In this document: positions 21,376 to 61,574 of the stretch, piece after piece | How the letters are laid out: every line of letters begins with the position of its first letter | How positions within the stretch are numbered: position 1 is the first letter of the stretch | Sequence record: PX994957.1 | Reading direction: 5' to 3' (one strand) | Origin: a phage | DNA: 64,000 nt | Notes under the pieces: generated by a model | Seen by the model: the letters and a program-made list of their open reading frames with translations, nothing else | The model's database searches: none | Told to the model about the DNA's origin: nothing | Made by a program: the position numbers and the translations under genes

Positions 21376-21377
21376 AC

Positions 21378-30376: not shown

Positions 30377-30757
30377 TCACTTAGTCAAATTTTTTACACA
30401 TGAATTATAAGAATTCACTACATACTCCATCGGAGCATTTTTACCAGTACGCCATTGGTAATTATTAGCCCAATTAGCCCAAAGTTCGGCGCAGTAGTTT
30501 TCAATTTTTTCTTCGCGTGTAATTACATCTGAATTACGATATGCTTGAGCAGATTCATCTGGACGAATAGCTTCGTCAAAATTTGCCTGCATTTGTTCTA
30601 CTGTTTGCTTTGGAGCTTCTTTATAACACTTGACATTAGGATTATAAAACTTGCTTGAACAGTTTACAATTTTTCCTACATCAGACTGATTTACTACCGG
30701 TCCTTGAGCCACACAACCAGTAAGACCTAATGCAATAACCAAAATAGCGATTTTCAT
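30377..30757 (-). CDS. lipoprotein (imm.1-type)
   Basis: 126 aa; signal peptide + lipobox MKIAILVIALGLTGC; SD GAGGAAATTATT. Confidence 0.6.
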   Translation of the reverse strand: MKIAILVIALGLTGCVAQGPVVNQSDVGKIVNCSSKFYNPNVKCYKEAPKQTVEQMQANFDEAIRPDESAQAYRNSDVITREEKIENYCAELWANWANNYQWRTGKNAPMEYVVNSYNSCVKNLTK

Positions 30758-30767
30758 AATAATTTCC

Positions 30768-31004
30768 TCAAATGCAAGTAGTAATTACTCCAGTAGTGCT
30801 TATGCAGGTATTACCAATTTGCACACCTAAAGATCCATTTGTATTCACATGAAGATTATCATCAATTTTAACTGATATTTTACCATTAGTGTGAATAACG
30901 GTGCTAGATTCAATCACAGGTTGAGTATCATTTTCAACACTAACAAATGGAACTGCTGCTAATGCAACTAAACAAACTGCTAAGCATCCCATAACAATTT
31001 TCAT
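30768..31004 (-). CDS. small exported protein with signal peptide
   Basis: 78 aa from ATG 31004 with SD GGAGAATAAA; MKIVMGCLAVCLVALAAVPFVS. Confidence 0.5.
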   Translation of the reverse strand: MKIVMGCLAVCLVALAAVPFVSVENDTQPVIESSTVIHTNGKISVKIDDNLHVNTNGSLGVQIGNTCISTTGVITTCI

Positions 31005-31041
31005 TTTATTCTCCAAATCCGTATCAGTAGTTGATAGTTGT

Positions 31042-31071
31042 ATAGTACCATGGAAGAACATTCTTGTAAAC
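31042..31071 (-). promoter_or_regulatory. T-even early promoter
   Basis: GTTTAC (31066-31071), 18-nt spacer, TACTAT (31042-31047); conserved leader. Confidence 0.55.
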
Positions 31072-31158
31072 AGTTTTGTGAAAATTTTTTAGGGAATTTT
31101 AAATGTCCAGAATCATCTGTTTTTCATAAGTATAGATTTATATTACTTGTATGAAAAA

Positions 31159-31174
31159 GGGACCCGGAGGTCCC
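31159..31174 (-). terminator. intrinsic terminator after gene 43
   Basis: GGGACC CGGA GGTCCC hairpin followed on minus strand by UUUUUCAUAC. Confidence 0.6.
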
Positions 31175-31187
31175 TAGATTTATTCTA

Positions 31188-33884
31188 TCAGCCAAACAGG
31201 AAGTCTAACGAAGCTTTTTCTTCATAGTCCATACCAGCCGATTCACACATGCCCGCAAGCGGTTTAACAAACGATTTTTGGAACAAAGTTGAGTAGTCAA
31301 TCCAAAACAGTACGTCAGAACGAATTTCTTTTGGAAGTTCTGTACCCGACGGCCAAGCAATGCATTTGTCACCAAATGGATTTCCTTCACGCAATGGAAG
31401 AACCATTACTTTATTTCCATCCAAAATTGGAGCTACACCTAAACCGCTAACAGCTCGACGATAAGTTAGCACACCACGAATATGGAACGGACATTTAAAT
31501 CCTGGCCAACCTTTATCATCATATTTCGCTATATCGTTCGCAGTTTTTACTTCAGCAATAACTTTATAATCAAGTTGACGATATTCTTTCTCAAAGTTCT
31601 TGTAGTATTCTTGGACAGACTCTTCACCTTCTTGAAGAATACGACGAATACTTTCTTCGAGAGCTTCTTGGACCGCTTTAGGCGTTGAACTCTGCTGAGT
31701 TTCCATACCCATGATTTTTAGATGTGGTTCAGCAAAACGCTTATCTTCCATATCATAAACGTTCAGAGCATAACGCTTTTTCGCTTTCCAAAATCCACCA
31801 ACACCCTTTGAACCAAGCGGAGGGCAAGAAATAGCTTCACGGTCCATATGCATCAGATGCTCGCGGTTATTCATATAATCACATAACTCACGATATGCAA
31901 CATCAATCATAGGTTCCATCTTTTTCTTACCAAACTGATTCATGAATTCAACTAAATCATTTTGTTCTTTAAAGCGGTCAAGACCTACTTTTTCAATTAC
32001 TTTATCTACACAAACATATACCGAATCAGTATCACCTGCTGCGATGAAATCTTCACCATTAGTTCCACATACTTTATTCAGATATTCATTAATTTTGCGA
32101 GCAATCCACTGAATACCGACTTGACCGAAAATTGTGATAGCAGTAGCATTTCGCAAATCATAGTAACGGAAATGAATATTACCAAGAGCACCATAAAGAC
32201 TGTTAATAAGAATTTTACGGTTCAGCTGATTTGTGTTAGCAAGTGTAGCTGCTTTTTCACATTCTTCGATCAGACTATTAAGAACAGATTCGGTGTAATT
32301 CGATAATTCGTTTAAGAAATCATCACTGAACTTAACATATCGTTCAACTTCTGGTTTAGTTGAGCAAGACCCTGCGCCTTTCATAATAATCTTTTTAATA
32401 GCTTCGGCATTCATTTCTTCCGCGAACATTTTCTTTTTCCAATCTTTACGCTGGAAAAATACTTTAGCGATTTCCTTTGGAATGATACCTTCTTGGTGCT
32501 TATCATACATCCATCCATTCGGAGAGCAAGAATATTCATCACTTGGCTTAGGAGCTGTTCCTGCGATATATTCATGAATTGGATGAACTTTAAACTGCCC
32601 ACGAATAGTCTCAGGACTAATGTTAACCTGACGAATAATGCTAGGATACAGAGACGTCAAGTCAAAACTCATAATGTATCGACGAGCAATCGGTTTAGGT
32701 TCAAACACAAATGCACCTGGAAAACTCTGTTTAACGTGCGAACCTTGTTGAGGAATAACCTTATGTTCACCTTTCAGTGAGTTAAAAATAATAGCATCCC
32801 AAGTTTTAATAGGACTCATTACACCAGAAAAAGGCATTTTAGCGTAATAAGACATACTTAAAACTAGATCGATAAACCCACGAATTTTATCAATTGCTTG
32901 AACTGATTCTACGTCAATGATGTTATAACTAATGTATCTCTGATGATTAGTCTCACGAAGTTTATTAATAGGACCATCATACGGTAATTTACCTTTTTTG
33001 GTTTCATGCTGAGCAACTGATTCCAAAGAGAATGACGGCAAATTAGTAAATGCGAATTTCTTATACAAATCTAAATAATCAAGAATAGATACGCCATCAA
33101 TAGAATAAATTTCTTTGCTACCGTACACATTTTGAATTAGTTTAGATTTTACTCGACCGATTGGAGAGAAGCGTTTCATACTACGTTCACCGAGAACCAT
33201 TTTAACGCGATTCATGATATACGGAACGTCAAATCCCTCAATATTCCAACCAGTAAAAATAGCAGGTCGTTTCTGTTCCCAAAGATTGATATATTCCATG
33301 AGCATATCACGCTCATTATCAAATGACATATAAATTACTCGGTCAAGAATTTCTTGAGGAACTTCATCACCACCTTCGCAGTCGAGCTTAGCAGCTAACT
33401 TTGCATCCCATTTTGATACTGAACCGTACATTGAATTCAAAAGGTCGAAAACATAAAAACGATCGTCAATTGAATCATAATGAGTGATAGCATCAATTTC
33501 ATATTCAGCTTTCATTGGATCAGGAAATTTATCACCAGTAACCTCAATGTCACAGTTAGCTACACGAACAAATTTTCGGTCATAAACAATTTCTGAACCA
33601 TACGTATCACTGATATAAGCGAGTTTAAAATCGTTCATACCAAGAGCTTCGAGACCGATGTCTTCCATTCGCTTCATCCAATCTCGAGCATCTTTCATTG
33701 ATGGAAATTTTTGAGGAGCGCAATTTTTACCATAGATGTCTTTGTATTTTGACTCTTCCTTACAATGTCTAAACATAGTTGGAAGATATTCTACTTCACG
33801 AGTACGTTCCTTTCCATTTTCATCAATATAACGTTCAACAATGTTATTTCCGACTGTTTCGATAGAGATATAAAATTCTTTCAT
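31188..33884 (-). CDS. 43: gp43 DNA polymerase (family B)
   Basis: 898 aa, equal to T4 gp43; exo and pol motifs (FDIE, SLYPSII, YGDTDS); N- and C-termini as recalled for T4. Confidence 0.96.
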   Translation of the reverse strand: MKEFYISIETVGNNIVERYIDENGKERTREVEYLPTMFRHCKEESKYKDIYGKNCAPQKFPSMKDARDWMKRMEDIGLEALGMNDFKLAYISDTYGSEIVYDRKFVRVANCDIEVTGDKFPDPMKAEYEIDAITHYDSIDDRFYVFDLLNSMYGSVSKWDAKLAAKLDCEGGDEVPQEILDRVIYMSFDNERDMLMEYINLWEQKRPAIFTGWNIEGFDVPYIMNRVKMVLGERSMKRFSPIGRVKSKLIQNVYGSKEIYSIDGVSILDYLDLYKKFAFTNLPSFSLESVAQHETKKGKLPYDGPINKLRETNHQRYISYNIIDVESVQAIDKIRGFIDLVLSMSYYAKMPFSGVMSPIKTWDAIIFNSLKGEHKVIPQQGSHVKQSFPGAFVFEPKPIARRYIMSFDLTSLYPSIIRQVNISPETIRGQFKVHPIHEYIAGTAPKPSDEYSCSPNGWMYDKHQEGIIPKEIAKVFFQRKDWKKKMFAEEMNAEAIKKIIMKGAGSCSTKPEVERYVKFSDDFLNELSNYTESVLNSLIEECEKAATLANTNQLNRKILINSLYGALGNIHFRYYDLRNATAITIFGQVGIQWIARKINEYLNKVCGTNGEDFIAAGDTDSVYVCVDKVIEKVGLDRFKEQNDLVEFMNQFGKKKMEPMIDVAYRELCDYMNNREHLMHMDREAISCPPLGSKGVGGFWKAKKRYALNVYDMEDKRFAEPHLKIMGMETQQSSTPKAVQEALEESIRRILQEGEESVQEYYKNFEKEYRQLDYKVIAEVKTANDIAKYDDKGWPGFKCPFHIRGVLTYRRAVSGLGVAPILDGNKVMVLPLREGNPFGDKCIAWPSGTELPKEIRSDVLFWIDYSTLFQKSFVKPLAGMCESAGMDYEEKASLDFLFG

Positions 33885-39646: not shown

Positions 39647-40662
39647 TGTGTTGCCTCTACATATAACTGATTTGCATATTGAATAAGTGCTTCACGGTCA
39701 GAATCAGTGATGTCTGGAATTGCATTAATGTATTCTTCCATCAACGTCTGAAGAGATTGAACTTCAACTTCTTCACTGTCATCTGACTCGACAAAGTTAT
39801 CAATCTTTGACACAACTCGTAATGAATGCACAACTTTTTCTAGTTCAGATTCGAACTTCGTTAGATTTTTGTCTACTTCAGTTACTATAACACGTACTGA
39901 TAGATTTGTAAAATCTTTATAGTCAATTTTTCCTTTAAATGGATAATGAATTCTACGATGCCAGGTAGTATTGTTTGGAATAAATTCCATTCGTTCTGTT
40001 TCTGTATCAAACATCCAGAACCCACGAGGGTCATTCTCGTCACCTGCAGTTAGTGTCCATGGTGTCCCAATATATCTAACGTTAGCAGCCTCAGAGATAG
40101 TATGGAAGTGACCAGACCACACTTCTTTATAAGTCTTAAGGAAATCAGGTTCAAGACCATGAGATTTCATTCCTTTATAAAAATAAAATCCATTCAGTTC
40201 CCAGTGACCAACACAAAAAGAAGCAGATGAAGTTTTGATGTGTTCAAGAATTTCACCAGTATTTTCTTCACACATCCAAGGAATTAAATCAATTAAACAT
40301 CCGTCAAAATCTACTGTAGTAGGCTTATCATATACTTTAACATTAGGATATTTAGCCAAAAGCTCAGTAGAAGCATTTGGATGCATTACATTTTTGTAGT
40401 GAAGATCGTGATTTCCTACAATAGTATGTAGGGTAATACCAGCATCATCAAGCATTTGAACTATTTCACGAGCAAATTCCATAGTTTTATGCGTGATCGC
40501 TTTTCGCACATCAAAAATATCACCGTATTGAATCCATACCGTAATTCCATTTTTCTTAGAATATTCTATCGCTTGCTTAATTCCATCAATTTGAATACCG
40601 CGAATCCACTCATCATCAGCTTTAACGCCTAAATGCCAATCACCTAAATTTAAAATTTTCAT
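39643..40662 (-). CDS. 47: gp47 recombination nuclease subunit (SbcD/Mre11-like)
   Basis: 339 aa, equal to T4 gp47; phosphoesterase motifs DWH, GDIFD, GNHD. Confidence 0.9.
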   Translation of the reverse strand: MKILNLGDWHLGVKADDEWIRGIQIDGIKQAIEYSKKNGITVWIQYGDIFDVRKAITHKTMEFAREIVQMLDDAGITLHTIVGNHDLHYKNVMHPNASTELLAKYPNVKVYDKPTTVDFDGCLIDLIPWMCEENTGEILEHIKTSSASFCVGHWELNGFYFYKGMKSHGLEPDFLKTYKEVWSGHFHTISEAANVRYIGTPWTLTAGDENDPRGFWMFDTETERMEFIPNNTTWHRRIHYPFKGKIDYKDFTNLSVRVIVTEVDKNLTKFESELEKVVHSLRVVSKIDNFVESDDSEEVEVQSLQTLMEEYINAIPDITDSDREALIQYANQLYVEATQ

Positions 40663-40840: not shown

Positions 40841-42041
40841 ATTTTGTAATAATGTCAAACTGTTCTTTAAAGCAGAAGCTTGAATCTTGATGCTGATACA
40901 AAAATTCATAAGCTTTTTCGCGTTCGCGGTCATAAAGAGTTCGGTCAGATGACAGTTCTTTAATACGTTCAAATGTTGATTCCATGTCATTTTCATCAAA
41001 CCAAATGATACCGCTATCATGCGAGGTCAAAGGAGTATTATCAACACGGAATTTTAAATTTTCGCCAGTAGATTTCCAAAATACCGGAATTGTTCCACAT
41101 GCACCAAGCTCGAGATGAGTATATTCTAAAGAACGTTGTAGATATTTTTTGTCCAACTTACTCAGCTGATAACCAAATCCGGATTTACTCATACGTTCAA
41201 GCATTTCGCTATTTACATAACGGTCAAGAATTTGCGTTGGCAAATTAGGAGCAATTTTAATTTGGTCTACTTGATGAAGACGATAATACTCGTATGGAAT
41301 TCCTTTTTCTTTAATAGGAATGAACGCTGGAGAACGTTCCAGACCTTCCATAATAGTACTTAGTCCTGCAGGTTTAAGATGTTTTTCATGAAAATCAAAC
41401 ATCTGATAAAAACCTTTCCATGTAGTCGTACGACCAATCCAACGGTTAACATTCATGTTAATTTCAGAAACATCTTTCCAGTAGGTTGATCGAACCTTCG
41501 CAATATCCATAGGAGGCTGAAAGTTATATACTGTCGGTGCTTCTTCAATATCATCAAACAGAGAAACAGTTTCTGGATACCATTCTTTCATCAGAACTTT
41601 ATTAAAATCACCATTATCAGAATGGCTAAAAATAACATCAGCTCGACGAACAGTTTCTTCTAATCCCAAATTTCGGCGCAAAGAAAGAGAAGAATGGTCA
41701 TGTTGATAAACTACAACACGAACCGAAGGTTTAATGTTATCAATAATTTTTTTATAGTTATTAATAGTGTCTTCTTCAACTGAAGTAGCAGGAACTGAAT
41801 TGATAATTAGAATATCACAATCATTTACCAGCTTAAGTGTTTTATCATATTCTTTTGCCAATAAAACCGGAATTGAAAATGATTTATAATCATGCGCGCA
41901 ATTACGAGTAAATGATTTATCTTTAGCATAAACCAAAGTCACTTCATGACCATTTTTAATAAACCAATCACGTTGCTCGAGTGAGAATTTTGTTACACCA
42001 CAACCTTCAAGACCTCGAGCCATAAAAATACATACTTTCAT
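40839..42041 (-). CDS. a-gt: alpha-glucosyltransferase
   Basis: 400 aa, equal to T4 a-gt; N-terminus ICIFMARGLEGCGVTKFSLEQRDWFIKNGHEV as recalled. Confidence 0.92.
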   Translation of the reverse strand: MKVCIFMARGLEGCGVTKFSLEQRDWFIKNGHEVTLVYAKDKSFTRNCAHDYKSFSIPVLLAKEYDKTLKLVNDCDILIINSVPATSVEEDTINNYKKIIDNIKPSVRVVVYQHDHSSLSLRRNLGLEETVRRADVIFSHSDNGDFNKVLMKEWYPETVSLFDDIEEAPTVYNFQPPMDIAKVRSTYWKDVSEINMNVNRWIGRTTTWKGFYQMFDFHEKHLKPAGLSTIMEGLERSPAFIPIKEKGIPYEYYRLHQVDQIKIAPNLPTQILDRYVNSEMLERMSKSGFGYQLSKLDKKYLQRSLEYTHLELGACGTIPVFWKSTGENLKFRVDNTPLTSHDSGIIWFDENDMESTFERIKELSSDRTLYDREREKAYEFLYQHQDSSFCFKEQFDIITK

Positions 42042-42065
42042 TTAATATCCTCTTTGTTTTGGTTT

Positions 42066-44818: not shown

Positions 44819-45112
44819 TCAGCTGTAACGATAGCACTCGTTTGATTTACGCTTAGCAACTAGTTGAGAAGTATTATAATCAAAATCATCGTCAATGTAA
44901 ACTGATTTTTTCAACTTTCTTACTTCACCACGCAGTTGACGATTCAATTCATTCTTAACCTCTGAATCAACACCTCGCATACGTCGCCATTTATCTGAAC
45001 GAAAAATGTTTTCAACCATATCTTTATGACTTACCCCATCAGGAGCTTTACGCTTTCCGAAATAGTCATAATCACGAACTTTCAAGTCTTTACGACGATA
45101 CGTTTTACCCAT
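44819..45112 (-). CDS. hypothetical basic protein
   Basis: 97 aa from ATG 45112; track start is read-through across the upstream small gene. Confidence 0.5.
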   Translation of the reverse strand: MGKTYRRKDLKVRDYDYFGKRKAPDGVSHKDMVENIFRSDKWRRMRGVDSEVKNELNRQLRGEVRKLKKSVYIDDDFDYNTSQLVAKRKSNECYRYS

Positions 45113-45281
45113 GGAGTTTAATTTCCTTAGCAACTGAACTAAATACAGCACGATCACAAATCATACGTTTGTTCCATTTAATCACAGTATAATGAACATC
45201 TAAATCATCGACTGCTGTAACAATAACGATATGTCCGTTAGCACGATAGTACTGGTCAATTTTAATCTCTTTATCAACCAT
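45105..45281 (-). CDS. 58-aa hypothetical protein
   Basis: ATG 45281 with SD GAGGAATTGAT just downstream of early promoter; absent from ORF track. Confidence 0.5.
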   Translation of the reverse strand: MVDKEIKIDQYYRANGHIVIVTAVDDLDVHYTVIKWNKRMICDRAVFSSVAKEIKLHG

Positions 45282-45311
45282 ATCAATTCCTCAAAGGTAA
45301 TTCATATGTTA

Positions 45312-45341
45312 ATAATACCACGGTTTGAACTTCTTGTAAAC
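45312..45341 (-). promoter_or_regulatory. T-even early promoter
   Basis: GTTTAC (45336-45341), 18-nt spacer, TATTAT (45312-45317). Confidence 0.5.
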
Positions 45342-45422
45342 AACTTTGTGAAAATTATTTTAGGGAATGATAAGAAGTGAACGATAGCTTAGAATGGTAA
45401 TATACAGAATGTGAGAAAGAAA

Positions 45423-45435
45423 GGCCCAGAGGGCC
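45423..45435 (-). terminator. hairpin terminator after nrdH
   Basis: GGCCC aga GGGCC followed on minus strand by UUUCUUUCUC. Confidence 0.5.
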
Positions 45436-45439
45436 CGTC

Positions 45440-46379: not shown

Positions 46380-46850
46380 TTAATCATGTTTCCACACCCC
46401 ATCGGTATTTGACCAAAGTCGCTGATTATCTGATCCTCGCCACAGCTTTTTGGTCGGAAGATTTTTCTCATACTTCCCATCAATAATAACATCAACATAT
46501 TTAAGCATTTCTAGTTGTTTAATATCTTCAAACTTATATCCTGTCCACAACCAAATGCTTTTACTGGGATAAAGATTTTTTACTGTTTGAACAATGCAAT
46601 GAATCACGTCTCTGTTATCAGGATAAAGAGGGTCTCCTCCAGTTATAGTTAATCCTTCTATATAATCATTATTCAAACATTCAATTAATTGTTCCAGTGT
46701 TTCACCAGTGAATGGAACGCCATTTCTAGCATTCCATGTTGATTTATTATAACACCCTTCGCATTTATGCAAACAACCTGTAACGAAAAGAACGACCCTG
46801 CAACCAGGGCCATTAACAAAATCGCAAGGATAAAATCTATCATAATTCAT
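46380..46850 (-). CDS. nrdG: NrdG anaerobic ribonucleotide reductase activase (radical SAM)
   Basis: 156 aa, equal to T4 NrdG; Cys cluster CLHKCEGC; ATG overlaps nrdD stop. Confidence 0.88.
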   Translation of the reverse strand: MNYDRFYPCDFVNGPGCRVVLFVTGCLHKCEGCYNKSTWNARNGVPFTGETLEQLIECLNNDYIEGLTITGGDPLYPDNRDVIHCIVQTVKNLYPSKSIWLWTGYKFEDIKQLEMLKYVDVIIDGKYEKNLPTKKLWRGSDNQRLWSNTDGVWKHD

Positions 46851-48664
46851 TGGTGTTTAACCCTATGCATGATTTCTTTATTTTTACCGAGATTAAATCC
46901 GCGTTCGTTCGGATTTCCCAAATAACCACATGTTCTTCTTATGGTATTCATCTTTTTAGGATCAGTTTCTCCACAAATAGAACAAACAAATCCGTTTTCA
47001 GTAGGAGTCATTTCATGGGTACTTCCACACGTAAAACATTTATCTACCGGCATATTAACACCAAAATAATCTAAATGTTGTGCGGCATAATCCCATACAG
47101 CCTCAAGACCTTTTAAGTTATTTTTCATATCAGGAAGTTCAACATAAGAAATGTGACCACCTGTCGCAATGAAATGATATGGCGCTTCACGAGAAATCTT
47201 TTCAAACGGAGTAACATTTTCTTCTACTGAAACGTGGAAACTGTTAGTGTACCAGCCTTTATCAGTAACATCCTTTACACTTCCATATTTTTCTGTATCA
47301 AGTTTACAGAAGCGATAGCAAAGGTTTTCAGCAGGAGTAGAATACAAACTAAAAGCAAACCCAGTTCTTTCAGTCCACTGTTTAAGATGAGCATTCATTT
47401 TAGTTAAAATTTCTTGTCCAATATCACGACCGATAAGAATATTCAATTCGTGAATACCAATGTATCCTAAAGACACTGAACTTCTACCGTTTTTAAATAA
47501 CTCAATTATATCGTCATCGGGTTTAAGACGAACCCCGAATGCACCTTCTTGGTAAAGAATAGGAGCAACAGTAGCTTTAATTCCTTTTAAGGAACTAATT
47601 CTACACATCAAAGCTTCAAAACATAAATCCATTCGTTCATTGAACAATTCGATAAATTTCTGTTCATTGAACTGTGTTCCAATATAAGAATCTAACGCGA
47701 TGCGAGGAAGATTCAGTGTTACAACACCAAGATTATTACGTCCATCAAGAATTTCATTACCAGTCGAATCTTTCCATACGCTCAAGAAACTACGGCAACC
47801 CATTGGAGAAACAGGAACAGATGAACCAGTGATAGCTTTATTGTTCTTAGCTGAAATAATATCAGGATACATCCTTTTGCTTGCACACTCTAAAGCAAGC
47901 TGCTTAATATCATAGTTCGGATCATCTTTATAAAGATTAACACCTTCTTCAACGAACATAACAAGCTTAGGGAAAATAGGAGTTATCCCATCACGACCAA
48001 GACCTTTAATACGATTTTTCAGAATTGCTTTCTGAATCATTCGTTCAGTCCAGTCAGTTCCCGTACCAAATGTAATTGTTACAAAAGGTGTTTGTCCGTT
48101 TGAACTAAAGAGAGTATTTACTTCATATTCATAAGCTTGGAATGCATCGTATACGTCTTTTTCTGTTTTAGATTGGGCATAATTTAACGCATCAGCGATT
48201 TGCCATTTTTCTGCATCCTCAATATGTTTTGCATAGGTGCGTTTAACATAAGGAGAAAGTACTTTATCTACATTAGCAAAAGTCGTTCCGCCGTATTGAT
48301 GGGAAGCAACCTGTGCAGTAATTTGTGCCATAATTGCAGTAGCAACACCGATTGATTTAGGAGTTTCAATCTGTGCATTACCAAGCTTAAATCCGTTCTC
48401 AAGCATTCCTTTTAAATCTACTAAACAACAATTAGTAAATGGAAGAGCAGGGGAATAATCAATATCATGGAAATGGATAATTCCGCTTTCATGCGCTTTC
48501 ATAATAAAAGACGGGACCATATTTTTGGCAATGTGTTTAGACACAATACCAGCCATAAGGTCCCGTTGAGTTGGAAAAACACGAGAATCTTTATTAGCAT
48601 TCTCGTTTAAAAGGTCTTTATTAGTTTTATGAATCAATCCTTCAATTTCTTTTTCAATTGTCAT
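46847..48664 (-). CDS. nrdD: NrdD anaerobic ribonucleotide reductase, uninterrupted
   Basis: 605 aa single ORF; C-terminal zinc site CFTCGS...CSICG and glycyl-radical region RTCGYLG. Confidence 0.92.
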   Translation of the reverse strand: MTIEKEIEGLIHKTNKDLLNENANKDSRVFPTQRDLMAGIVSKHIAKNMVPSFIMKAHESGIIHFHDIDYSPALPFTNCCLVDLKGMLENGFKLGNAQIETPKSIGVATAIMAQITAQVASHQYGGTTFANVDKVLSPYVKRTYAKHIEDAEKWQIADALNYAQSKTEKDVYDAFQAYEYEVNTLFSSNGQTPFVTITFGTGTDWTERMIQKAILKNRIKGLGRDGITPIFPKLVMFVEEGVNLYKDDPNYDIKQLALECASKRMYPDIISAKNNKAITGSSVPVSPMGCRSFLSVWKDSTGNEILDGRNNLGVVTLNLPRIALDSYIGTQFNEQKFIELFNERMDLCFEALMCRISSLKGIKATVAPILYQEGAFGVRLKPDDDIIELFKNGRSSVSLGYIGIHELNILIGRDIGQEILTKMNAHLKQWTERTGFAFSLYSTPAENLCYRFCKLDTEKYGSVKDVTDKGWYTNSFHVSVEENVTPFEKISREAPYHFIATGGHISYVELPDMKNNLKGLEAVWDYAAQHLDYFGVNMPVDKCFTCGSTHEMTPTENGFVCSICGETDPKKMNTIRRTCGYLGNPNERGFNLGKNKEIMHRVKHQ

Positions 48665-49701: not shown

Positions 49702-49731
49702 ATTATATACTGTTTCTTCATCAGTGTAAAC
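49702..49731 (-). promoter_or_regulatory. T-even early promoter upstream of pin
   Basis: GTTTAC (49726-49731), 18-nt spacer, TATAAT (49702-49707). Confidence 0.55.
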
Positions 49732-52043: not shown

Positions 52044-53045
52044 TTACTTAATTAACTGTAAAGCTTGTTCAAGACGATCAAGACGATTAACAGATTCTTC
52101 CCAAATCCTTTTAGCCTGCTCATATTCTTTCTGCGCTTTATTAGAAATTTCTAGAACTTCTTTATAAGCTTTTTCTAGTGCAATAACTTCTGGACGAATT
52201 TCTACCGGTTCAGGTGAATCATCAAGATTATCCATTAGTTCCTCAAGGGTAGTTTCTTCTTTAGGAGTATTCACAATTTCATCACATTTTTGTTGATAAA
52301 TTTCTTTATCAGTAGGTGAGTACGCGCACTTTACTTCACGAAGACTAATTACAATTTTATATCCTTCCCAACCGCATATATTCTTAAAAGGATAAGTATG
52401 AATATTTTCTACTGTTTCCATACAATCCAAAGCCGTCTCTAATTGATGAGTTATAGTGCTAGCAATTGAGAAAAATTTATTAATATTCTTTTGGTTAGCT
52501 TCTGGTGTAAAAAATTCGTAATTCACAAAAATAGCTACTTTGTTTTTATCAAGCTCATATTCTTTTACGATAATCATATCAGAAGCCAAAGGATGAATTT
52601 GACGATAATCGCCATAACATAATTTAGAAGCTGATTTTAGAATTTGTCCTTTAAAAAGTCTGAAATTACTAATCCAACGACGAGTAAAAATATTCTTAGG
52701 GTCTTCTTTGATATTAAGATGATAAGAATTAACATCACCGAACCAATTGTATCCTATTACACCTTTAGTTTGTTTAATTTCTTTCCCAAATTTACTAAGA
52801 ATATCTCTGTTGACTAAGTATGAAAGAAGACGAGACCCTTTAAAGATTATCTTAATATCATCTTTATCTACACGGCTAGAAATTTCACGAACTTCATGAA
52901 TAAATTTACTGGAAGAAACAATACTTGCATCAATACTGCTGAGCCATTGATTGATAATAGAAAGAACAACGTTCTGACTAGACATGGGTTTAACTTTATC
53001 ATCAATAACACTATTGAATGATTTGATATATTCGTTACGAGTCAT
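52044..53045 (-). CDS. hypothetical protein with C-terminal coiled coil (array member 2)
   Basis: 333 aa from ATG 53045 with SD GAGGAGATTATT (track start lies inside the promoter -10); tail KEYEQAKRIWEESVNRLDRLEQALQLIK. Confidence 0.6.
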   Translation of the reverse strand: MTRNEYIKSFNSVIDDKVKPMSSQNVVLSIINQWLSSIDASIVSSSKFIHEVREISSRVDKDDIKIIFKGSRLLSYLVNRDILSKFGKEIKQTKGVIGYNWFGDVNSYHLNIKEDPKNIFTRRWISNFRLFKGQILKSASKLCYGDYRQIHPLASDMIIVKEYELDKNKVAIFVNYEFFTPEANQKNINKFFSIASTITHQLETALDCMETVENIHTYPFKNICGWEGYKIVISLREVKCAYSPTDKEIYQQKCDEIVNTPKEETTLEELMDNLDDSPEPVEIRPEVIALEKAYKEVLEISNKAQKEYEQAKRIWEESVNRLDRLEQALQLIK

Positions 53046-53073
53046 AATAATCTCCTCAGTAGAAAGTAAGAAC

Positions 53074-53103
53074 ATTATACCACATCCTTGTGGTAAAGTA
53101 AAC
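53074..53103 (-). promoter_or_regulatory. T-even early promoter
   Basis: GTTTAC (53098-53103), 18-nt spacer, TATAAT (53074-53079); same spacer dyad as the rIIA.1 promoter. Confidence 0.55.
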
Positions 53104-55498: not shown

Positions 55499-56022
55499 GC
55501 GAGTACCGTCTTTAACCGTTCTTCAAACTTCCGAAGAGTATTTTGGCGTTCAGCTCTTTGCTTTTTGTAAGTTTCAATACGCTCTGAAATGAGAGTGTAT
55601 CGTTCATTTACTGATTTTTTCATAAAATCAGGAATTTCACGAGAAGCTTTAATCTCGTCAAATTTATCAATAACAGCTTGCTCTTCAGCAATTAAGTTAT
55701 CATACATCAAAATATCTTTCTTGATGAACTCAATATCTTCTTGAGTTACACGAGATAATTTAGATGCTTTATCCTTTTTGTACTGTTCGTTAGTATCACG
55801 AGACCAGTGTAATGTACGATTTTTATTCGTGTTCTTGTAAATTTCTACAATACCAATCTCATCGATAATAACGATCCAATTCCAACGGGATTTGTAAATT
55901 TGCCCTCCATCAACCGTGATTTCACCACCGATTGAGACATCATTAAAGAACTTGCTTTGAGCTTCAGATTTAAATTTACCATCATTGTAGTTTACCAAGT
56001 TGAAAATATCTTTAGCATTCAT
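55495..56022 (-). CDS. hypothetical protein with C-terminal coiled coil
   Basis: 175 aa from ATG 56022 with SD GGAGGAACAGAAA; track N-terminus is promoter read-through. Confidence 0.55.
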   Translation of the reverse strand: MNAKDIFNLVNYNDGKFKSEAQSKFFNDVSIGGEITVDGGQIYKSRWNWIVIIDEIGIVEIYKNTNKNRTLHWSRDTNEQYKKDKASKLSRVTQEDIEFIKKDILMYDNLIAEEQAVIDKFDEIKASREIPDFMKKSVNERYTLISERIETYKKQRAERQNTLRKFEERLKTVLA

Positions 56023-56050
56023 TTTCTGTTCCTCCGTAGTTGATAGTTGC

Positions 56051-56080
56051 ATAGTACCACAGAGGAACGGTCTTGTAAAC
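56051..56080 (-). promoter_or_regulatory. T-even early promoter
   Basis: GTTTAC (56075-56080), 18-nt spacer, TACTAT (56051-56056); GTTCCTC / GAGGAAC inverted repeat. Confidence 0.55.
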
Positions 56081-56487: not shown

Positions 56488-57456
56488 TTATTTCAGAAGA
56501 GTAACCTCAGCGATTTCTTGCCAACCGTTTTTGTCGGTCATAATAAAGTCAGCAAGATAAAGTGCAGTACGCAGTGAAACATTGCGTAAACGGTTAACAT
56601 TGACTTTCATCCATGATAATGCTTTATAAGTTTCTTCATCAGAAAGACCGCGCTTTTGCATCATGTCGGTTGAAAGAATAACATCTTCAACCCTGACCAT
56701 AATTTCTTCATTAGTGTGAACACCCAAATCTAAATAAACTGAGCGGGACACTAATGCTTGTAAATGTGGAGCAAGTTTAGTACCACGGTCTAATTCGCGG
56801 TCAATGTCAACGTTTGTGATAAAAACAATCGTTCCTTTAAATTCAAACTCACGCTCAATGCCTTTTTCTTCTAAGTAAGAAGATGCAGTGCTCCAGCAGA
56901 CTTTACGGGTCTCTCCAGTGTCCAGAGCAGCTTTCAGAAGATTAAGAATGTCCATATCAGAGAAAACATCCACATCATCAATCAAAAGGACAGAATTCTC
57001 TTCACGATTATTCCAAAGTTGTTCATAAAGACCGATACCGGAGATTTTACCGTTAATGCTTTTATATTCAATGTATCCATTATCATTTGCTTTATTCAAA
57101 GCTTTATCTAAAGAATACGTTTTACCAATACCCGCCGCACCAGAGATAATTAATGAACGAATGTTTCCGTTAATAATACCATTCGTCATCATTCCCATAA
57201 CATTAAATCTTTTATTAATGCGGGTTTTCATATCTTCATATGATTCTTTAACTTCTTCAACTTTTACACCATCATATGAAATGTCTGATTTATAAACCCA
57301 AACACCGCGACGTTTACCGTCAATTTCAACAAAAACTTTACCATCTCCTTGTGCATCTACCGGAGCATTATCTGGGAACCATTCGCCTAAGAGCTCAAAA
57401 GTTCCAGAGATTTCTTTACCGAAGTAGATACCCTTATTGATAGTTACAGTTTTCAT
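56488..57456 (-). CDS. P-loop NTPase (AAA-like ATPase)
   Basis: 322 aa from ATG 57456 with SD GGAGAATAAA; Walker A GAAGIGKT, Walker B VLLIDDVD; track N-terminus is promoter read-through. Confidence 0.65.
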   Translation of the reverse strand: MKTVTINKGIYFGKEISGTFELLGEWFPDNAPVDAQGDGKVFVEIDGKRRGVWVYKSDISYDGVKVEEVKESYEDMKTRINKRFNVMGMMTNGIINGNIRSLIISGAAGIGKTYSLDKALNKANDNGYIEYKSINGKISGIGLYEQLWNNREENSVLLIDDVDVFSDMDILNLLKAALDTGETRKVCWSTASSYLEEKGIEREFEFKGTIVFITNVDIDRELDRGTKLAPHLQALVSRSVYLDLGVHTNEEIMVRVEDVILSTDMMQKRGLSDEETYKALSWMKVNVNRLRNVSLRTALYLADFIMTDKNGWQEIAEVTLLK

Positions 57457-57490
57457 TTTATTCTCCAAATCCGTATCAGTTGATAGTTGT

Positions 57491-57520
57491 ATAGTACCAT
57501 AAAGCTTTATGCTTGTAAAC
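57491..57520 (-). promoter_or_regulatory. T-even early promoter upstream of the ATPase gene
   Basis: GTTTAC (57515-57520), 18-nt spacer containing palindrome ATAAAGCTTTAT, TACTAT (57491-57496). Confidence 0.55.
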
Positions 57521-57552
57521 AATTTTGTGAAAAAATTTTTGAAATAAAAAAA

Positions 57553-57570
57553 GGGAGCCCGAAGGCTCCC
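57553..57570 (-). terminator. intrinsic terminator after the NTase-like gene
   Basis: GGGAGCC CGAA GGCTCCC followed on minus strand by UUUUUUUAUUUC. Confidence 0.65.
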
Positions 57571-57572
57571 TA

Positions 57573-58586
57573 TCATTTATAATAACTTCGGTGGTTTTCA
57601 AGATAAACCTTCTCAAGGAAGTCATCCCAGAAACCCATGTCTACTTTTTGCTGCATACCGTTCTTAGAAGCTTCAGTAGATGCTGCTTCTACTTGATCGA
57701 CCACATCTTCCAAAAACTCTTGAACTGTTTTAAATGGATGTTTACCCAACTTCACGTCGAGAATAAATGGAGCATCTTGAAGTGGATAAACCAAGTCACC
57801 AGTTTTGTAAATTTCCAATAGTTGAAGTCCACCACGGCAAGCATGGCTCAGAGCTTTCCAGTCAATGCCCTCATTCGCTTCAGCCTTACGAGCACGTTCG
57901 CCGTATTCAGCATCTAATTTGTTAAGTGACTGCTTAAGCTCAATAAGAGAAAGTGTTGTCTGATATTTACGACCCAACACAGTGTAAAACGTTTGTGGAC
58001 CTGTTTTCTCATGATTATGGAATACCCATTCACAGAACTCGTTTTCAGGGAGTCTGTGTTTGATATCTTCTATCTTAGTACGACGAAGTCTATCAGGGAT
58101 TCCTTCTTGATAGTCGACCCACTGGTCAGGGATTTGATTAACTACTTTCAATACATCACGTAATGCGGCCAAACGAGAACCCTTGACACCGTATTTAGAA
58201 GCTTGCTTGCGGACATATCCTAAATAGGATTTCATGTTAGTTGTATAAAACCGTGAACGATTGTCTTGGATAAATTTCCATACATCAGGCAAATCAGATT
58301 TAACCACTAGTTCAGGCGGAGTGTGAAGCATATCCAATGCTACAGTTTCACCATCTGCTGCTAATTTAAAGAAATACTTAAGACTGTATAGTTCATGGTC
58401 AATATCATCTTTAGTGTTTTTAGATGATGTGTTGTTAGTGTTTTTACTCATATGCTCTTTAACATTTCCGATAAGAATATCGCGAGCACGAGGAACAAAG
58501 ATTTCTTTAAAATCTACATCAGATTCTGGAGTAGAAGTTCCATAAAGATGACTACCAAAATAGCTTTTCATTACTGTTTTCATCAT
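57573..58586 (-). CDS. nucleotidyltransferase-fold protein
   Basis: 337 aa; N-terminal FGSHLYGTSTPESDVDF fits Pol-beta NTase GS-x10-DxD signature with a later candidate catalytic Asp (VALDMLH). Confidence 0.55.
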   Translation of the reverse strand: MMKTVMKSYFGSHLYGTSTPESDVDFKEIFVPRARDILIGNVKEHMSKNTNNTSSKNTKDDIDHELYSLKYFFKLAADGETVALDMLHTPPELVVKSDLPDVWKFIQDNRSRFYTTNMKSYLGYVRKQASKYGVKGSRLAALRDVLKVVNQIPDQWVDYQEGIPDRLRRTKIEDIKHRLPENEFCEWVFHNHEKTGPQTFYTVLGRKYQTTLSLIELKQSLNKLDAEYGERARKAEANEGIDWKALSHACRGGLQLLEIYKTGDLVYPLQDAPFILDVKLGKHPFKTVQEFLEDVVDQVEAASTEASKNGMQQKVDMGFWDDFLEKVYLENHRSYYK

Positions 58587-59044
58587 TCAGCCTTATATTC
58601 AATAACAGGACATACTTTAGCTTTACGAGCTTTTAAAAATTCAACGATAATCGATTTCTTGGATTGAATAGGAGGTAAACCTTTATTTTTCCTATCAATA
58701 TTTTCTACGTGTAAAGCATAATCCTTTTTCCATTTATAATCTTTATATTTTTCACGCAAATGTGCAGGAATAACAAATGAACCGATAATAAGTAAAACAA
58801 CCAAAAGCGCAAGTATAAATGCCGATGGAAGAAGAGCCCATAAACTACCGAAAATAAGCCAACGTTGTAGGCTTTCTGCACAAATAATTGTTAACCCTAC
58901 GAGTATAGCACACCCAAAAATAGAAACGAAAAATGTAGGTATGGCAATAGACCAAAAATATGCGCATAGTGTCTTAGGTCGTTGCCATTCATCGTTAAAC
59001 AATTTGAATAATTTATAGTGCCAAGAGTTTTCATTAATAATCAT
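58583..59044 (-). CDS. membrane protein
   Basis: 153 aa; hydrophobic segments SIAIPTFFVSIFGCAILVGLTIICA and GSLWALLPSAFILALLVVLLIIGSFVI. Confidence 0.55.
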   Translation of the reverse strand: MIINENSWHYKLFKLFNDEWQRPKTLCAYFWSIAIPTFFVSIFGCAILVGLTIICAESLQRWLIFGSLWALLPSAFILALLVVLLIIGSFVIPAHLREKYKDYKWKKDYALHVENIDRKNKGLPPIQSKKSIIVEFLKARKAKVCPVIEYKAE

Positions 59045-59046
59045 AA

Positions 59047-59568
59047 TTATCCTTTCATTGAAGGCGTAACGGTTGTTAAATACTTAATCATAGCTTCAGC
59101 TTCTGATTTTGATAGTGAAATTTCTTCACCGTTTTGGCGAATAGAAACAAAATCTGGATGACGATCACCACCAGCTTTTAAAACACACATATAAGTATCA
59201 GCTTCGCCTTCAATATTTGAAATGATTGAAGCAGTTCCACACGAATGTGGTTTTTGATAAATCAATACAGCTTTTCTTCCACCATTTGACTGTTCATAGG
59301 CTTTTAATACATCAAACAAATCAGTTCTTTTATCAATAGCTAAAATGTTATTTTCATCTTCAATGTTAAATCCTTCGGATACTTCATAAAGCGTTACCCA
59401 TAAATCACCAATGTCAATAACAGCATTTACTTTTCCACGACTTTCAAGAGTATGACAAATTTTCTTGATTTCGTCATAACTCATTTTAATAATATCATCT
59501 CCTTGACTAAGGAAGATGTCATTTTTAAATTCAACACGAATTAAACCGCTTCCACTTGAAATAAACAT
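59047..59568 (-). CDS. hypothetical protein (paralog pair member)
   Basis: 173 aa; C-terminal FVSIRQNGEEISLSKSEAEAMIKYLTTVTPSM parallels next ORF. Confidence 0.55.
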   Translation of the reverse strand: MFISSGSGLIRVEFKNDIFLSQGDDIIKMSYDEIKKICHTLESRGKVNAVIDIGDLWVTLYEVSEGFNIEDENNILAIDKRTDLFDVLKAYEQSNGGRKAVLIYQKPHSCGTASIISNIEGEADTYMCVLKAGGDRHPDFVSIRQNGEEISLSKSEAEAMIKYLTTVTPSMKG

Positions 59569-60563: not shown

Positions 60564-60667
60564 TACATACTCCTTTGAATCATATCAATAATATTGTTCA
60601 CCAGATTATAGGTAAACAAAGGATAATTATATTGAATCATCACATACACGACAAACAAAATTTTCAT
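60563..60667 (-). CDS. 34-aa hydrophobic peptide
   Basis: ATG 60667 with strong SD GAGGAGAAGAGA directly downstream of early promoter; absent from ORF track. Confidence 0.4.
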   Translation of the reverse strand: MKILFVVYVMIQYNYPLFTYNLVNNIIDMIQRSM

Positions 60668-60695
60668 TCTCTTCTCCTCAGCAGTTGACAAGATT

Positions 60696-60725
60696 ACTAT
60701 ACCATAACCTTGCCAACTTGTAAAC
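60696..60725 (-). promoter_or_regulatory. T-even early promoter
   Basis: GTTTAC (60720-60725), 18-nt spacer, TATAGT (60696-60701). Confidence 0.5.
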
Positions 60726-61291: not shown

Positions 61292-61479
61292 TATTCCACC
61301 ACATATGACAGAGAGAATATTGCACACGCCATGTGAGTTGCAACTTCATCACACATATTATAACGTTTCTTAAGAAATTCTACAAGTTCTTCACTAGTAA
61401 CTTCATCCATGTCGACGAAAAAATCACCATTAATGATGACGTAGATATTTCCTTCTTGATTGAGTGCTTCAATTTTCAT
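61291..61479 (-). CDS. hypothetical protein
   Basis: 62 aa from ATG 61479 with SD GAGGAGAATATC. Confidence 0.5.
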
Positions 61480-61507
61480 GATATTCTCCTCTTTATCTGA
61501 TAGTTGT

Positions 61508-61537
61508 ATAGTATCACAGCTCAAACGGAAAGTAAAC
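61508..61537 (-). promoter_or_regulatory. T-even early promoter
   Basis: GTTTAC (61532-61537), 18-nt spacer, TACTAT (61508-61513). Confidence 0.5.
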
Positions 61538-61553
61538 CGGTAAAATGAAAAAA

Positions 61554-61569
61554 GTCTCCCGAAGGAGAC
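61554..61569 (-). terminator. intrinsic terminator after rI.-1
   Basis: GTCTCC CGAA GGAGAC followed on minus strand by UUUUUUCAUUUUA. Confidence 0.6.
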
Positions 61570-61574
61570 TAATG

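Follow-up and report, generated by a model that had tools for sequence, protein, structure and literature searches.

Organization of the window and of the nrdC.11/nrdC.10 cassette

The DNA analyzed here (hereafter the window) comprises 64,000 nt of the phage record PX994957.1, with positions counted from its first letter. It represents the early-gene part of a T4/T2-like coliphage genome (Tequatrovirus). It is 96-98% identical to many T4/T2-like phages and collinear with T4 from motA via rIIA up to tk.4, all its genes being on the minus strand. The end of the window corresponds to about 61 kb of T4, so the position of regB (62.3-62.7 kb in T4) falls past it. A search of the whole window with the Rfam covariance models at the gathering score returned zero matches.

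The junction between nrdC.11 and nrdC.10 is occupied by a compact series of signals on the minus strand. The TGA stop codon of the upstream gene, nrdC.11, lies at 57573-57575 (the tblastn match of T4 NrdC.11 ends at 57576), and a terminator-like hairpin, AGGGAGCC-UUCG-GGCUCCCU (57552-57571; 8 pairs, 6 of them G-C; -15.7 kcal/mol), starts 1 nt past it. The stem is followed by seven T's (57551-57545) and then by an A+T-rich, UP-like stretch ending in AAAAATTTTTTCACAAAATT (the two together spanning 57521-57551), which also contains the TTTTCACAAAAC common to the long-leader family described below. Next come the -35 box GTTTAC (57515-57520) and an extended -10 box, TGG followed by TACTAT (57491-57499, with the hexamer at 57496-57491). 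We placed start sites 36 nt downstream of the G of the -35 box, an offset that reproduces the T4 map units Pe26.4, Pe35.3 and Pe40.4 (PMC6024815). It predicts initiation at about 57484 and a 28-nt 5' UTR, AUCAACUGAUACGGAUUUGGAGAAUAAA (57457-57484). At the 3' end of this leader, GGAGAATAAAA (57456-57466) holds the Shine-Dalgarno (SD) motif GGAG (57466-57463) inside an exact match to the RegB/S1 consensus GGAGRAYARAA, and its last A is the A of the nrdC.10 start codon (ATG, 57454-57456), as placed by comparison with T4 NrdC.10.

This cassette shares 96% identity with the sequence found upstream of nrdC.10 in T4 (U76612.1), in which the same hairpin is labeled a terminator and the boxes are annotated as the minus_35_signal and minus_10_signal of "early promoter 54.4". 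With its stem-loop, its U-tract and its position at the stop codon, the hairpin has the features of an intrinsic (rho-independent) terminator, and we regard it as a probable one. Located right after the nrdC.11 stop, the C(UUCG)G hairpin and U-tract would end or attenuate upstream transcripts, while the promoter 32 nt beyond would start transcription anew ahead of nrdC.10. Through its 3' end the leader may play a double role, as ribosome-binding site (RBS) and as optimal RegB/S1 cleavage site; we therefore propose that the mRNA is translated immediately and is inactivated afterwards, while infection is still at an early stage.

A mechanically called ORF (56488-57576) is in frame across hairpin, promoter and leader sequences (...GTIQLSTDTDLENK-MKTVT...), and thus gives nrdC.10 40 N-terminal residues that, in agreement with the earlier note, we consider spurious. 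That the leader is instead translated as a true N-terminal extension of nrdC.10 and its relatives has a negligible chance of being correct. The frame does stay open across the leader, but ribosomes producing the extension would have to pass through both the terminator hairpin and the promoter. They would also have to initiate at an ATG (57576) that lacks an SD, shares bases with the nrdC.11 stop codon and lies upstream of the predicted start site at 57484, whereas GGAG stands 7 nt 5' of the ATG at 57456. Moreover, the T4 annotation starts nrdC.10 at MKTVT, and unrelated proteins are preceded by the identical type of leader.

The early promoter core across the window

The pattern GTTTAC-N18-TAnnnT occurs 21 times in the window, always on the minus strand, against a chance expectation of 0.91 for both strands; none of 100 shuffled sequences attained this number. 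This two-strand search, suggested by the earlier note, recovered the promoter element at all 18 of the coordinates that it had named, with deviations of at most 1 nt. The spacing is rigid: in 21 of the 22 matches with a perfect GTTTAC the spacer is 18 nt, equivalent to 17 nt when counted from TTTAC(A/T). The 25 nt 5' of GTTTAC average 75% A+T (19 promoters) versus 66% for the window. The TG of the extended -10 is present in 17 of the 21 tabulated cassettes, being missing in the motB, sp, 55.5-internal and 49.1-internal sites; at motA, which falls outside that table, TGG precedes the -10 box as well. An SD and an ATG follow the predicted start sites within 19-55 nt.

Relaxing the pattern added little. 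Allowing one mismatch in GTTTAC gave 25 minus-strand and 28 plus-strand matches, i.e. no enrichment, and the sole credible site among these is that at 39913, while a position weight matrix scan of the window contributed a single additional site, at 12065. A generic sigma70 consensus scan was uninformative, with 84-98 sites per 20 kb compared to 80-86 in shuffled sequences, indicating that the signal resides in the T4-specific pattern.

The same scan of the first 80 kb of T4 yielded 25 minus-strand and no plus-strand matches at orthologous positions, and 20 of the 21 window sites are conserved there. The exception, at 60617 within mobD.2, is without an equivalent in T4 and probably reflects chance. 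Absence of the motif from relatives, which the earlier note had held would overturn its reading, is thus not what the comparison found. The orthologs carry terminator, -35 and -10 labels in the T4 entry U76612.1, including "early promoter 54.4", "57.9" and "50.0", and the published promoters Pe26.4, Pe20.3, Pe19.8, Pe35.3 and Pe40.4 (PMC6024815) correspond to window positions 31071, 25350, 24847, 39913 and 44902, respectively. For Pe40.4 and Pe35.3 there is primer extension evidence in T4 (PMC6024815).

The T4 early promoters (Pe; Liebig and Ruger 1989, J Mol Biol 208:517, as cited in PMC9391042) belong to the UP/-35/TGn/-10 class (review PMC2988021). The window elements are like them in consensus (UP-like A/T, GTTTAC, TGn and TAnnAT), in strand and in the orthologous genes that they precede; they differ by a few base changes and in that three window cassettes drive small ORFs absent in T4, but in nothing essential. 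We hence interpret them, with a probability of about 0.93, as host-sigma70-dependent early promoters of a T4-like phage, the identity that the earlier note had assigned to them and that the placement of the window in Tequatrovirus and the match of the nrdC.10 cassette to an annotated T4 promoter support. Each promoter would consist of an A+T-rich UP-like region, a -35 box GTTTAC(A/T), a 17-nt spacer counted from TTTAC(A/T), and an extended -10 box of the form TGG-TAnnAT, and would be followed by a 5' UTR of 19-37 nt with a GGAG or GAGG SD, leading to the start codon of an early gene on the minus strand. The start sites, termination and RegB cleavage given here are predictions by analogy to T4.

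Distribution of the cassettes

All remaining cassettes likewise lie on the minus strand. At the motA end of the window, a cassette at 172-298 combines a hairpin with a CGAG loop (298-277), a -35 box (245-240), a -10 box (221-216), a variant of the long leader and an ATG at 174. It is followed by the ndd.4 cassette (3321-3381), which has a short leader, and by a long-leader cassette (3803-3869) driving orfX1 (68 aa, 3805-3599), which is absent in T4. Beyond the rIIA.1 cassette (8303-8360), the site at 12065 (cassette 11990-12065) has a degenerate -35 box (ATATAC), a 13-bp dyad across the -10 box and a variant of the long leader, and drives orfX2 (89 aa). Dyads also lie over the -10 box at motB (12584-12660), dmd (25289-25350; the Pe20.3 equivalent) and mobD.2 (60665-60725), whereas at motB.2 (13703-13762) a long dyad reaches up to the SD. 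The srd (17559-17621), modB (18898-18956), mrh.2 (21000-21093) and sp (24787-24847; the Pe19.8 equivalent) cassettes complete this part of the window.

Between gene 43 and imm.1, the Pe26.4-equivalent cassette (31002-31175) consists of a hairpin, a promoter and the full 33-nt leader, and drives an extra ORF, orfX3 (78 aa, 31004-30768). Other sites are located within coding sequences: that in gene 47 (39884-39913; the Pe35.3 equivalent) has TTTTAC as its -35 box; that in 55.5 (44873-44902) is the equivalent of Pe40.4, for which the primer extension was done in T4; and a promoter-like site within 49.1 (49702-49731), 5' of pin, is kept in T4 at 47452. The series is completed by the 55.6 (45279-45436), nrdC.4 (53043-53103; "early promoter 50.0" of T4), nrdC.8 (56020-56080; short leader) and mobD.5 (61477-61570; "early promoter 57.9") cassettes.

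Upstream hairpins

The six hairpins that the earlier note had named were all found within 1-2 nt of its positions, and each has a GC-rich stem with a T-tract behind it; a -35 box is found 14-87 nt downstream of each. Besides those at motA and nrdC.10, they are the ones at mrh.2 (21093-21072, CUAG), gene 43/imm.1 (31175-31158, UCCG), 55.6 (45436-45422, UCU) and mobD.5 (61570-61553, UUCG). The frequencies claimed for them did not hold: terminator-like hairpins precede only 6 of the approximately 22 promoters rather than many of them, and their loops are not mostly UUCG, which is found in two of the six, the rest being UCCG, CGAG, CUAG and UCU. Several UUCG hairpins of the window lie away from promoters. 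C(UUCG)G tetraloop hairpins are said to have been reported from T4 intercistronic regions by Tuerk et al. in 1988. The nrdC.10 and mobD.5 hairpins resemble these in having C(UUCG)G followed by a U-tract, whereas the other four promoter-adjacent hairpins have different loops.

Leaders and RegB/S1 sites

The earlier note had also described a 33-nt leader conserved across about 20 copies, a claim that has to be narrowed: the sequence it quoted, with up to 3 mismatches allowed, matches the window once, at 31041-31009. What is shared is a small long-leader family ending in GGAGAATAAAA, with 4 copies (-35 boxes at 3869, 12065, 31071 and 57520) and the motA variant at 245. A distinct short leader, ACAACTATCAACTACGGAGGAAC, has copies at 3381 and 56080 and a partial one at 61537 (mobD.5); the nrdC.8 and ndd.4 cassettes that bear it are approximately 93% identical. 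The remaining 12 or so promoters are followed by unrelated leaders of 19-24 nt, which have only the SD in common and whose 35-65% identity is the background for such short alignments. Within the long-leader family, the region from the -10 box to the ATG is identical at 42 of 43 to 43 of 46 positions, while the spacers are at chance-level identity.

The RegB/S1 cleavage consensus of T4 early mRNAs is GG*AGRAYARAA (PMC3014915). It has four exact matches, all of them in long leaders, against 0.43 expected. In position these exact matches agree with the strong RegB/S1 targets (PMC3014915), being placed where translation of early genes initiates. A difference is that the full consensus is present in only 4 of about 22 cassettes, with most of the others having a bare GGAG or GAGG. 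From this consensus and position we predict that the GGAGAATAAAA of the long leaders is a RegB/S1 site.

Dyads and sequestration of the ribosome-binding site

Folding of the promoter regions revealed seven whose z-scores did not exceed -3.8 and whose dyads cover the -10 box or the spacer. In certain cassettes the dyad involves the translation initiation region: at modB a hairpin (18932-18898) joins the -10 region to the SD and ATG, and at ndd.4 the spacer segment GTTCCTCTGTGG pairs with CTACGGAGGAAC, which contains the SD. We computed the predicted unpaired probability of the initiation region for 19 cassettes in three kinds of RNA, namely own-promoter transcripts, read-through transcripts and read-through transcripts with shuffled upstream sequence. 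Sequestration as a property of the entire class was rejected by this comparison (means of 0.43 for read-through versus 0.44 for the shuffled control; Wilcoxon p = 0.89). The only outliers are modB (0 of 60 shuffles) and ndd.4 (1 of 60); at motB.2, where the long dyad meets the SD, the read-through effect is not significant.

RBS-sequestering hairpins are known from the T4 genes e, soc, 49 and I-TevI (PMC3014915). The parallel is that at modB and ndd.4, and at nrdC.8 in the minimum free energy fold, base pairing links the promoter region to the SD or ATG. At these three the start site falls inside or past the 5' arm, so the RBS is predicted to be exposed only on transcripts from the local promoter. 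On the other hand, the known cases use late promoters, and the effect here is not class-wide. A tentative reading, which we judge rather unlikely, is that some of the dyads are a promoter-choice switch for translation and that the long leader is kept so uniform by serving both as a RegB/S1 site and as a recombination linker. The 5' end of the leader, or else the SD and ATG, would be the pairing partner of the spacer or -10 region, most clearly at modB and in the ndd.4/nrdC.8 type, and the downstream gene would be translated only from its own-promoter transcript, remaining silent on read-through transcripts.

Relationship to PeSL cassettes and gene exchange

The earlier note matched the elements to promoter-early stem-loop (PeSL) cassettes proposed as mobile modules, and Comeau et al. 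2014 (PMC4122927) indeed describe such cassettes in the PST/T4 pair, where the promoters follow the consensus TTTACW-N17-TAYWAT. Units of a PeSL and an ORFan have been likened to integron cassettes (Arbiol et al. 2010, PMC2839356), and in RB49/phi1 excised mini-circles between neighboring cassettes were seen by PCR (PMC2839356). Like PeSLs (PMC2839356, PMC4122927), the window elements join an early promoter and a stem-loop to an SD and ATG; their stem-loops stand either 5' of the promoter or at its -35 and -10 boxes, between or overlapping these; and some copies adjoin ORF presence/absence differences. With an early promoter, a stem-loop and the SD/ATG of a downstream gene, they can be classed on sequence grounds as putative PeSL cassettes. 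They differ from the RB49/phi1 PeSLs, which have a TTGACA -35 box and polyG/polyC stems, and to which the authors consider the T-even elements analogs rather than homologs; the association with indels between the window and T4 is also weak. Mobility of the cassettes is a published proposal that would apply here by analogy: a common sequence of 60-100 nt would act as a homologous crossover site through which the small ORF that follows is exchanged.

Alignment with T4 and, at one locus, with T2 shows exchange at a cassette in one place and a weak overall tendency of indels to fall in cassettes. The clear instance is the gene 43/imm.1 locus with its three alleles: in T4 the leader is followed by no ORF, in the window a long leader is followed by orfX3, and in T2 a short leader of the nrdC.8 type is followed by an unrelated ORF. 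The alleles part within the promoter spacer and rejoin at the SD of imm.1. Three of the five long-leader copies adjoin an ORF that is missing in T4 or left there as a deletion remnant. Yet only 4 of the 23 indel or replacement events touch cassettes. With cassettes making up 4.8% of the window, about 2.2 of the 46 breakpoints would be expected in them and 4 were observed, a weak enrichment. Homing endonucleases or an intron are involved in seven of the 23 events; further events map to gene junctions that have no promoter, including one flanked by 48-bp direct repeats of a gene 3' end.

To survey downstream ORFs we used the phage GenBank collection, as the long leader was found in only 2 IMG/VR contigs, too few for this purpose. 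A 79-nt cassette query matched 2152 places in 538 phage records. Both orfX1 and orfX3, which T4 lacks, are widespread (125 and 322 phage records, respectively), but they gave no evidence of movement of either between cassettes: each has one place per record, and in the records with T4 numbering the map positions fit the same locus.

These data bear on whether the copies are kept alike by exchange or by function. They might be functional promoters and leaders only, their likeness reflecting selection for strong recognition by RNA polymerase, the ribosome and RegB, with the indels arising by generic microhomology recombination that falls in intergenic DNA by coincidence; this is a possibility of some weight, though well short of an even chance. 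The conserved functional blocks amid -35/-10 spacers of chance-level identity, the small share of events touching cassettes and the single locus of orfX1 and orfX3 in each record all fit it. Further, T4 recombines at 6-10 bp microhomologies anywhere in its genome (PMC9391042), which alone could account for the junctions at 7-8 bp repeats (TAAAATG and ATGAAAAT). Selection of this kind sits less easily with leaders that are 92-100% identical over at least 40 nt, exceeding any obvious need of the SD or RegB. The copies also include mosaics, such as T4 e.8 with an imm.1-like spacer and a cef-like 3' leader, and the window ndd.4 copy is closer to the nrdC.8 copy than to its own T4 ortholog. The T2 allele, in which an unrelated ORF with the other type of cassette was swapped in by a crossover inside the promoter, likewise argues for exchange.

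Far less probable is a mobile element, autonomous or driven by an enzyme and resembling a MITE or an integron, that actively copies itself around the genome. A dispersed family with several copies per genome across hundreds of records might evoke one, as might the integron comparison of Arbiol et al. (PMC2839356). However, the window and T4 copies stand at identical orthologous positions, the borders of homology have neither terminal inverted repeats nor target-site duplications, and the spacers have diverged while the functional blocks were retained. No recombinase is known for these elements, and the PeSL authors found none (PMC2839356).

Biological implications

The repeated element of the window is the long-described early promoter of T4-like phages, a real signal whose recognition is decades old, and it constitutes no new biological class: the T4 early promoters, the terminators, the RegB sites and the idea of PeSL shuffling are all already published. 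The results support the interpretation of the earlier note as real, correctly read and already known, whereas the observation itself is partly confirmed. To this the present analysis adds a clean three-allele ORF exchange at gene 43/imm.1 with the crossover inside the promoter cassette, the quantitative caution that most indels of the region relative to T4 fall outside cassettes, and the restriction of the common leader to a small sub-family with an exact RegB consensus at its 3' end. If the promoter-choice reading of the dyads is true, it would extend the late-promoter mechanism of e, soc, 49 and I-TevI to early cassettes. Naive ORF calls cross these cassettes, as at nrdC.10; at the same time, a reader with the sequence alone can recover from them the transcription punctuation of a T4-like early region.

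A repeated early promoter on the minus strand

Over long stretches the window shares 96-98% identity with many T4/T2-like coliphages (genus Tequatrovirus), and BLAST shows it to be collinear with T4 (AF158101), running from motA (T4 ~163.4 kb) through rIIB and rIIA to tk.3/tk.4 (T4 ~61 kb), with T4 position 1 aligned to window 5903. By tblastn, some 110 early and middle genes of T4 could be placed, every one on the minus strand; the G+C content is 32-36% and the GC skew is negative throughout. Missing relative to T4 are 60.1/mobA together with ~1.1 kb at the gene 60-39 junction of T4, segF, dam, segA and the beta-glucosyltransferase (~950 bp in their place), mobB, mobC, the nrdD intron with I-TevII, and mobD (~960 bp in its place); the window sites of these losses are 8695-8760, 21375-21518, 22078-22099, 28293-29242, 42032-42057, 46830-46850, 48126-48129 and 58587-59550.

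The pattern GTTTAC-N18-TAnnnT occurs 21 times in the window, always on the minus strand, against 0.91 matches expected on both strands, and none of 100 shuffles reached this count. The repeated promoter element is thus real and far beyond chance, and each promoter coordinate listed in the earlier note falls within 1 nt of one of these matches. When one mismatch is allowed in GTTTAC the two strands yield 25 and 28 hits and the strand bias disappears; hence, the signal resides in the exact hexamer. Among inexact -35 sites, only 39913 (TTTTAC) and 12065 (ATATAC), where the leader is conserved, were judged credible. A GTTTAC-N18-TATTAT match within the mobD.2 coding sequence (60588-60617 (-)) has no T4 counterpart and is probably a chance hit, consistent with the roughly one expected. 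In most cassettes a TG precedes the -10, and the 25 nt before GTTTAC average 75% A+T; T4 early promoters form the UP/-35/TGn/-10 class (Hinton review, PMC2988021). Rfam returned no family match in the whole window.

The first 80 kb of T4 contain 25 minus-strand and no plus-strand matches to the pattern, and four further minus-strand matches lie at 160-169 kb; these sites are orthologous to those of the window. The older T4 GenBank record U76612.1 has annotations for a terminator and "early promoter 57.9" (window equivalent 61537), for "early promoter 50.0" (53103), and for unnamed -35/-10 pairs preceding mobD.2 and nrdC.8 (60725 and 56080). Patterson-West et al. (PMC6024815) named Pe26.4, Pe20.3, Pe19.8, Pe35.3 and Pe40.4 with map units, which equal the T4 coordinate of the -35 G minus 36 nt. 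The first three correspond to window 31071, 25350 and 24847, while Pe35.3 and Pe40.4 correspond to 39884-39913 (-) in gene 47 and 44873-44902 (-) in gene 55.5. The latter two sites at first appeared doubtful on account of their intragenic position; however, primer extension has been reported for the T4 promoters to which they are orthologous (PMC6024815). A search confined to intergenic DNA would miss them.

The nrdC.10 cassette and the upstream hairpins

Read on the minus strand, the cassette follows the stop codon TGA of nrdC.11 (57575-57573) and consists of a hairpin, AGGGAGCC-TTCG-GGCTCCCT (57571-57552), with seven T's after it, an A/T-rich stretch ending TTTTTTCACAAAATT, the -35 GTTTAC (57520-57515), an 18-nt spacer, TGG-TACTAT (-10 hexamer 57496-57491), then the leader ACAACTATCAACTGATACGGATTTGGAGAATAAA and the nrdC.10 ATG at 57456. 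The same 36-nt offset from the -35 G places the predicted start site at ~57484, giving a 28-nt 5' UTR. The T4 counterpart is 96% identical, with an identical hairpin, and U76612.1 annotates in it a terminator as well as a -35 and a -10 labelled "early promoter 54.4" upstream of nrdC.10. A mechanical ORF, 56488..57576, stays open in frame through the hairpin, the promoter and the leader (...GTIQLSTDTDLENKMKTVT...), bearing out the suggestion that such leaders are mistranslated as spurious N-terminal extensions.

All six upstream hairpins of the earlier note were recovered, 14-87 nt upstream of a -35, but they accompany six of ~22 promoters rather than "many copies". Nor are their loops mostly UUCG, as had been claimed: only two of the six have this loop, the others being UCCG, CGAG, CUAG and UCU. 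C(UUCG)G hairpins of the minus-strand transcript also lie away from early promoters, at 44480-44465, 42111-42092, 40841-40822, 4966-4949, 4737-4722 and 2095-2080.

Leader families and a putative RegB site

Leaders were grouped on an identity matrix and an alignment that took in every related copy of the window and of T4. The proposed conservation of the leader across copies holds within small families, but the 33-nt leader originally quoted matches only once (31041-31009). A long-leader family comprises four copies ending GGAGAATAAAA (-35 at 3869, 12065, 31071 and 57520) and a motA variant (245). The short leader ACAACTATCAACTACGGAGGAAC is shared by ndd.4 (3381) and nrdC.8 (56080) and in part also by mobD.5 (61537), while ~12 promoters have unrelated leaders of 19-24 nt with only a GAGG or GGAG Shine-Dalgarno in common. 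Among the long-leader copies of nrdC.10 and the small ORFs orfX1 and orfX3, identity from the -10 to the ATG is 42/43 to 43/46; the 18-nt spacers within the family are identical only at chance level. The shared homology extends from ~25 nt before the -35 (TTTTCACAAAAC) to the ATG or a few bases beyond.

Strong intergenic sites of RegB/S1, the T4 early-mRNA endoribonuclease system, have the consensus GG*AGRAYARAA and lie in translation initiation regions of early genes (Uzan and Miller, PMC3014915). The 3' end of the long leader matches this consensus exactly, and the consensus occurs four times in the window, only within long leaders, against 0.43 expected. Most economically, this stretch would act as ribosome-binding site and predicted RegB inactivation site in one; regB itself is located past the window end.

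The annotated start of T4 ndd.4 is an ATG within CTATGGAGG, i.e. the Shine-Dalgarno, and the same codon is ACG in the window (3321-3345 (-)). Hence, the conserved start is most likely the ATG further downstream, at 3323 (MKKIVKAIW), which would make the T4 annotation five codons too long.

Stem-loops within the promoters

Folding of the spacer, the -10 and the first 22 transcribed nucleotides predicted strong dyads at seven promoters, with the -35 at 12065 (-20.1 kcal/mol, z -8.4), 13762 (-23.7, z -7.1), 25350 (-18.9, z -7.2), 60725 (-19.0, z -6.1), 12660 (-17.4, z -4.8), 3381 (-15.4, z -4.5) and 56080 (-15.4, z -3.8). They are arranged like the subclasses of promoter-early stem-loops (PeSLs) of Arbiol et al., in which the stem-loop lies between the two boxes or covers the -10. 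The promoters of dmd (25289-25350 (-)) and mobD.2 (60665-60725 (-)) have a common dyad centred on the -10, with arms CAAGACTA/TAGTCTTG and CAAGGTTA/TAATCTTG; these paralogous dyads differ by a compensatory C-G to U-A change, and show wobble changes relative to T4.

The dyads do not act as general maskers of the ribosome-binding site on read-through RNA: the predicted probability of being unpaired averages 0.43 there and 0.44 when the upstream sequence is shuffled (p = 0.89). modB and ndd.4 are single exceptions. In a 14-bp modB hairpin (18898-18932 (-)), unchanged in T4, the promoter -10 region pairs with the modB Shine-Dalgarno and ATG. We infer a start site at 18920, immediately past the 5' arm, so the ribosome-binding site would be exposed only on transcripts from modB's own promoter. 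The predicted unpaired probability is 0.65 on such RNA and 0.16 on read-through RNA, and none of 60 shuffles was that low.

Cassettes and proposed module exchange

All the parts are of known kinds, namely T4 early promoters, intrinsic terminators, RegB sites and PeSLs. The definition of PeSLs comes from RB49/phi1 (PMC2839356), and a later study of the PST/T4 pair extended it, with the promoter consensus TTTACW-N17-TAYWAT (PMC4122927); the link made in the earlier note to PeSLs, proposed as mobile modules, is thus correct and applicable to this phage group. Overall, the core description and interpretation agree with established knowledge, while leader extent, upstream-hairpin frequency and UUCG prevalence had been overstated.

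Counting indels and replacements of at least 30 bp against T4 only, we found 23 events, four of which touch a cassette interval; cassettes make up 4.8% of the window. Between the window and T4, breakpoints are not significantly enriched in cassettes (4/46 versus ~2.2 expected). In seven of the 23, a homing endonuclease or an intron is involved (mobA/gene 60, segF, segA, mobB, mobC, I-TevII and mobD), and others lie at gene junctions without a promoter. An extra ORF of ~310 bp between genes 61.1 and 61.2 (23548-23858), likewise an indel without promoter connection, is flanked by a ~48-bp direct repeat of the gene 61.1 3' end (TCTATTGATGAYCAAATTTTTAATGCTTTTATGAATARAGGTTAATATG). Two features of the alignments would also be compatible with recombination among copies: T4 e.8 combines the imm.1 and cef types in one mosaic copy, and ndd.4 of the window is closer to nrdC.8 than to its T4 ortholog. 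T4 recombines generally at microhomologies of 6-10 bp (PMC9391042); hence, a special role for the cassettes stays a proposal, plausible but unproven.

Three of the five long-leader copies adjoin a small ORF that is missing from T4 or kept there as a remnant. These are orfX1 (3805-3599 (-), 68 aa), absent from T4 and flanked by the direct repeat TAAAATG; orfX2 (11992-11723 (-), 89 aa), of which T4 keeps only an internal-deletion remnant; and orfX3 (31004-30768 (-), 78 aa), absent from T4 and with its junction at the short direct repeat ATGAAAAT. Phage records with orfX3 number 322 and those with orfX1 125; either ORF occupies one place per record, and in T4-numbered records the positions fit the same locus.

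The clearest case is the gene 43/imm.1 junction, which has three alleles (window 30700-31200 (-), T2 L008 300-800 and T4 26960-27210). The T4 and T6 allele joins the leader directly to imm.1; the window and ~317 other phages have the long leader followed by orfX3; and T2 has an unrelated ORF (RB51ORF048) behind a short nrdC.8-type spacer and leader. Divergence among the three begins within the promoter spacer and ends at the imm.1 Shine-Dalgarno, a pattern that, as read from these alleles, is what cassette-mediated exchange of modules would predict.
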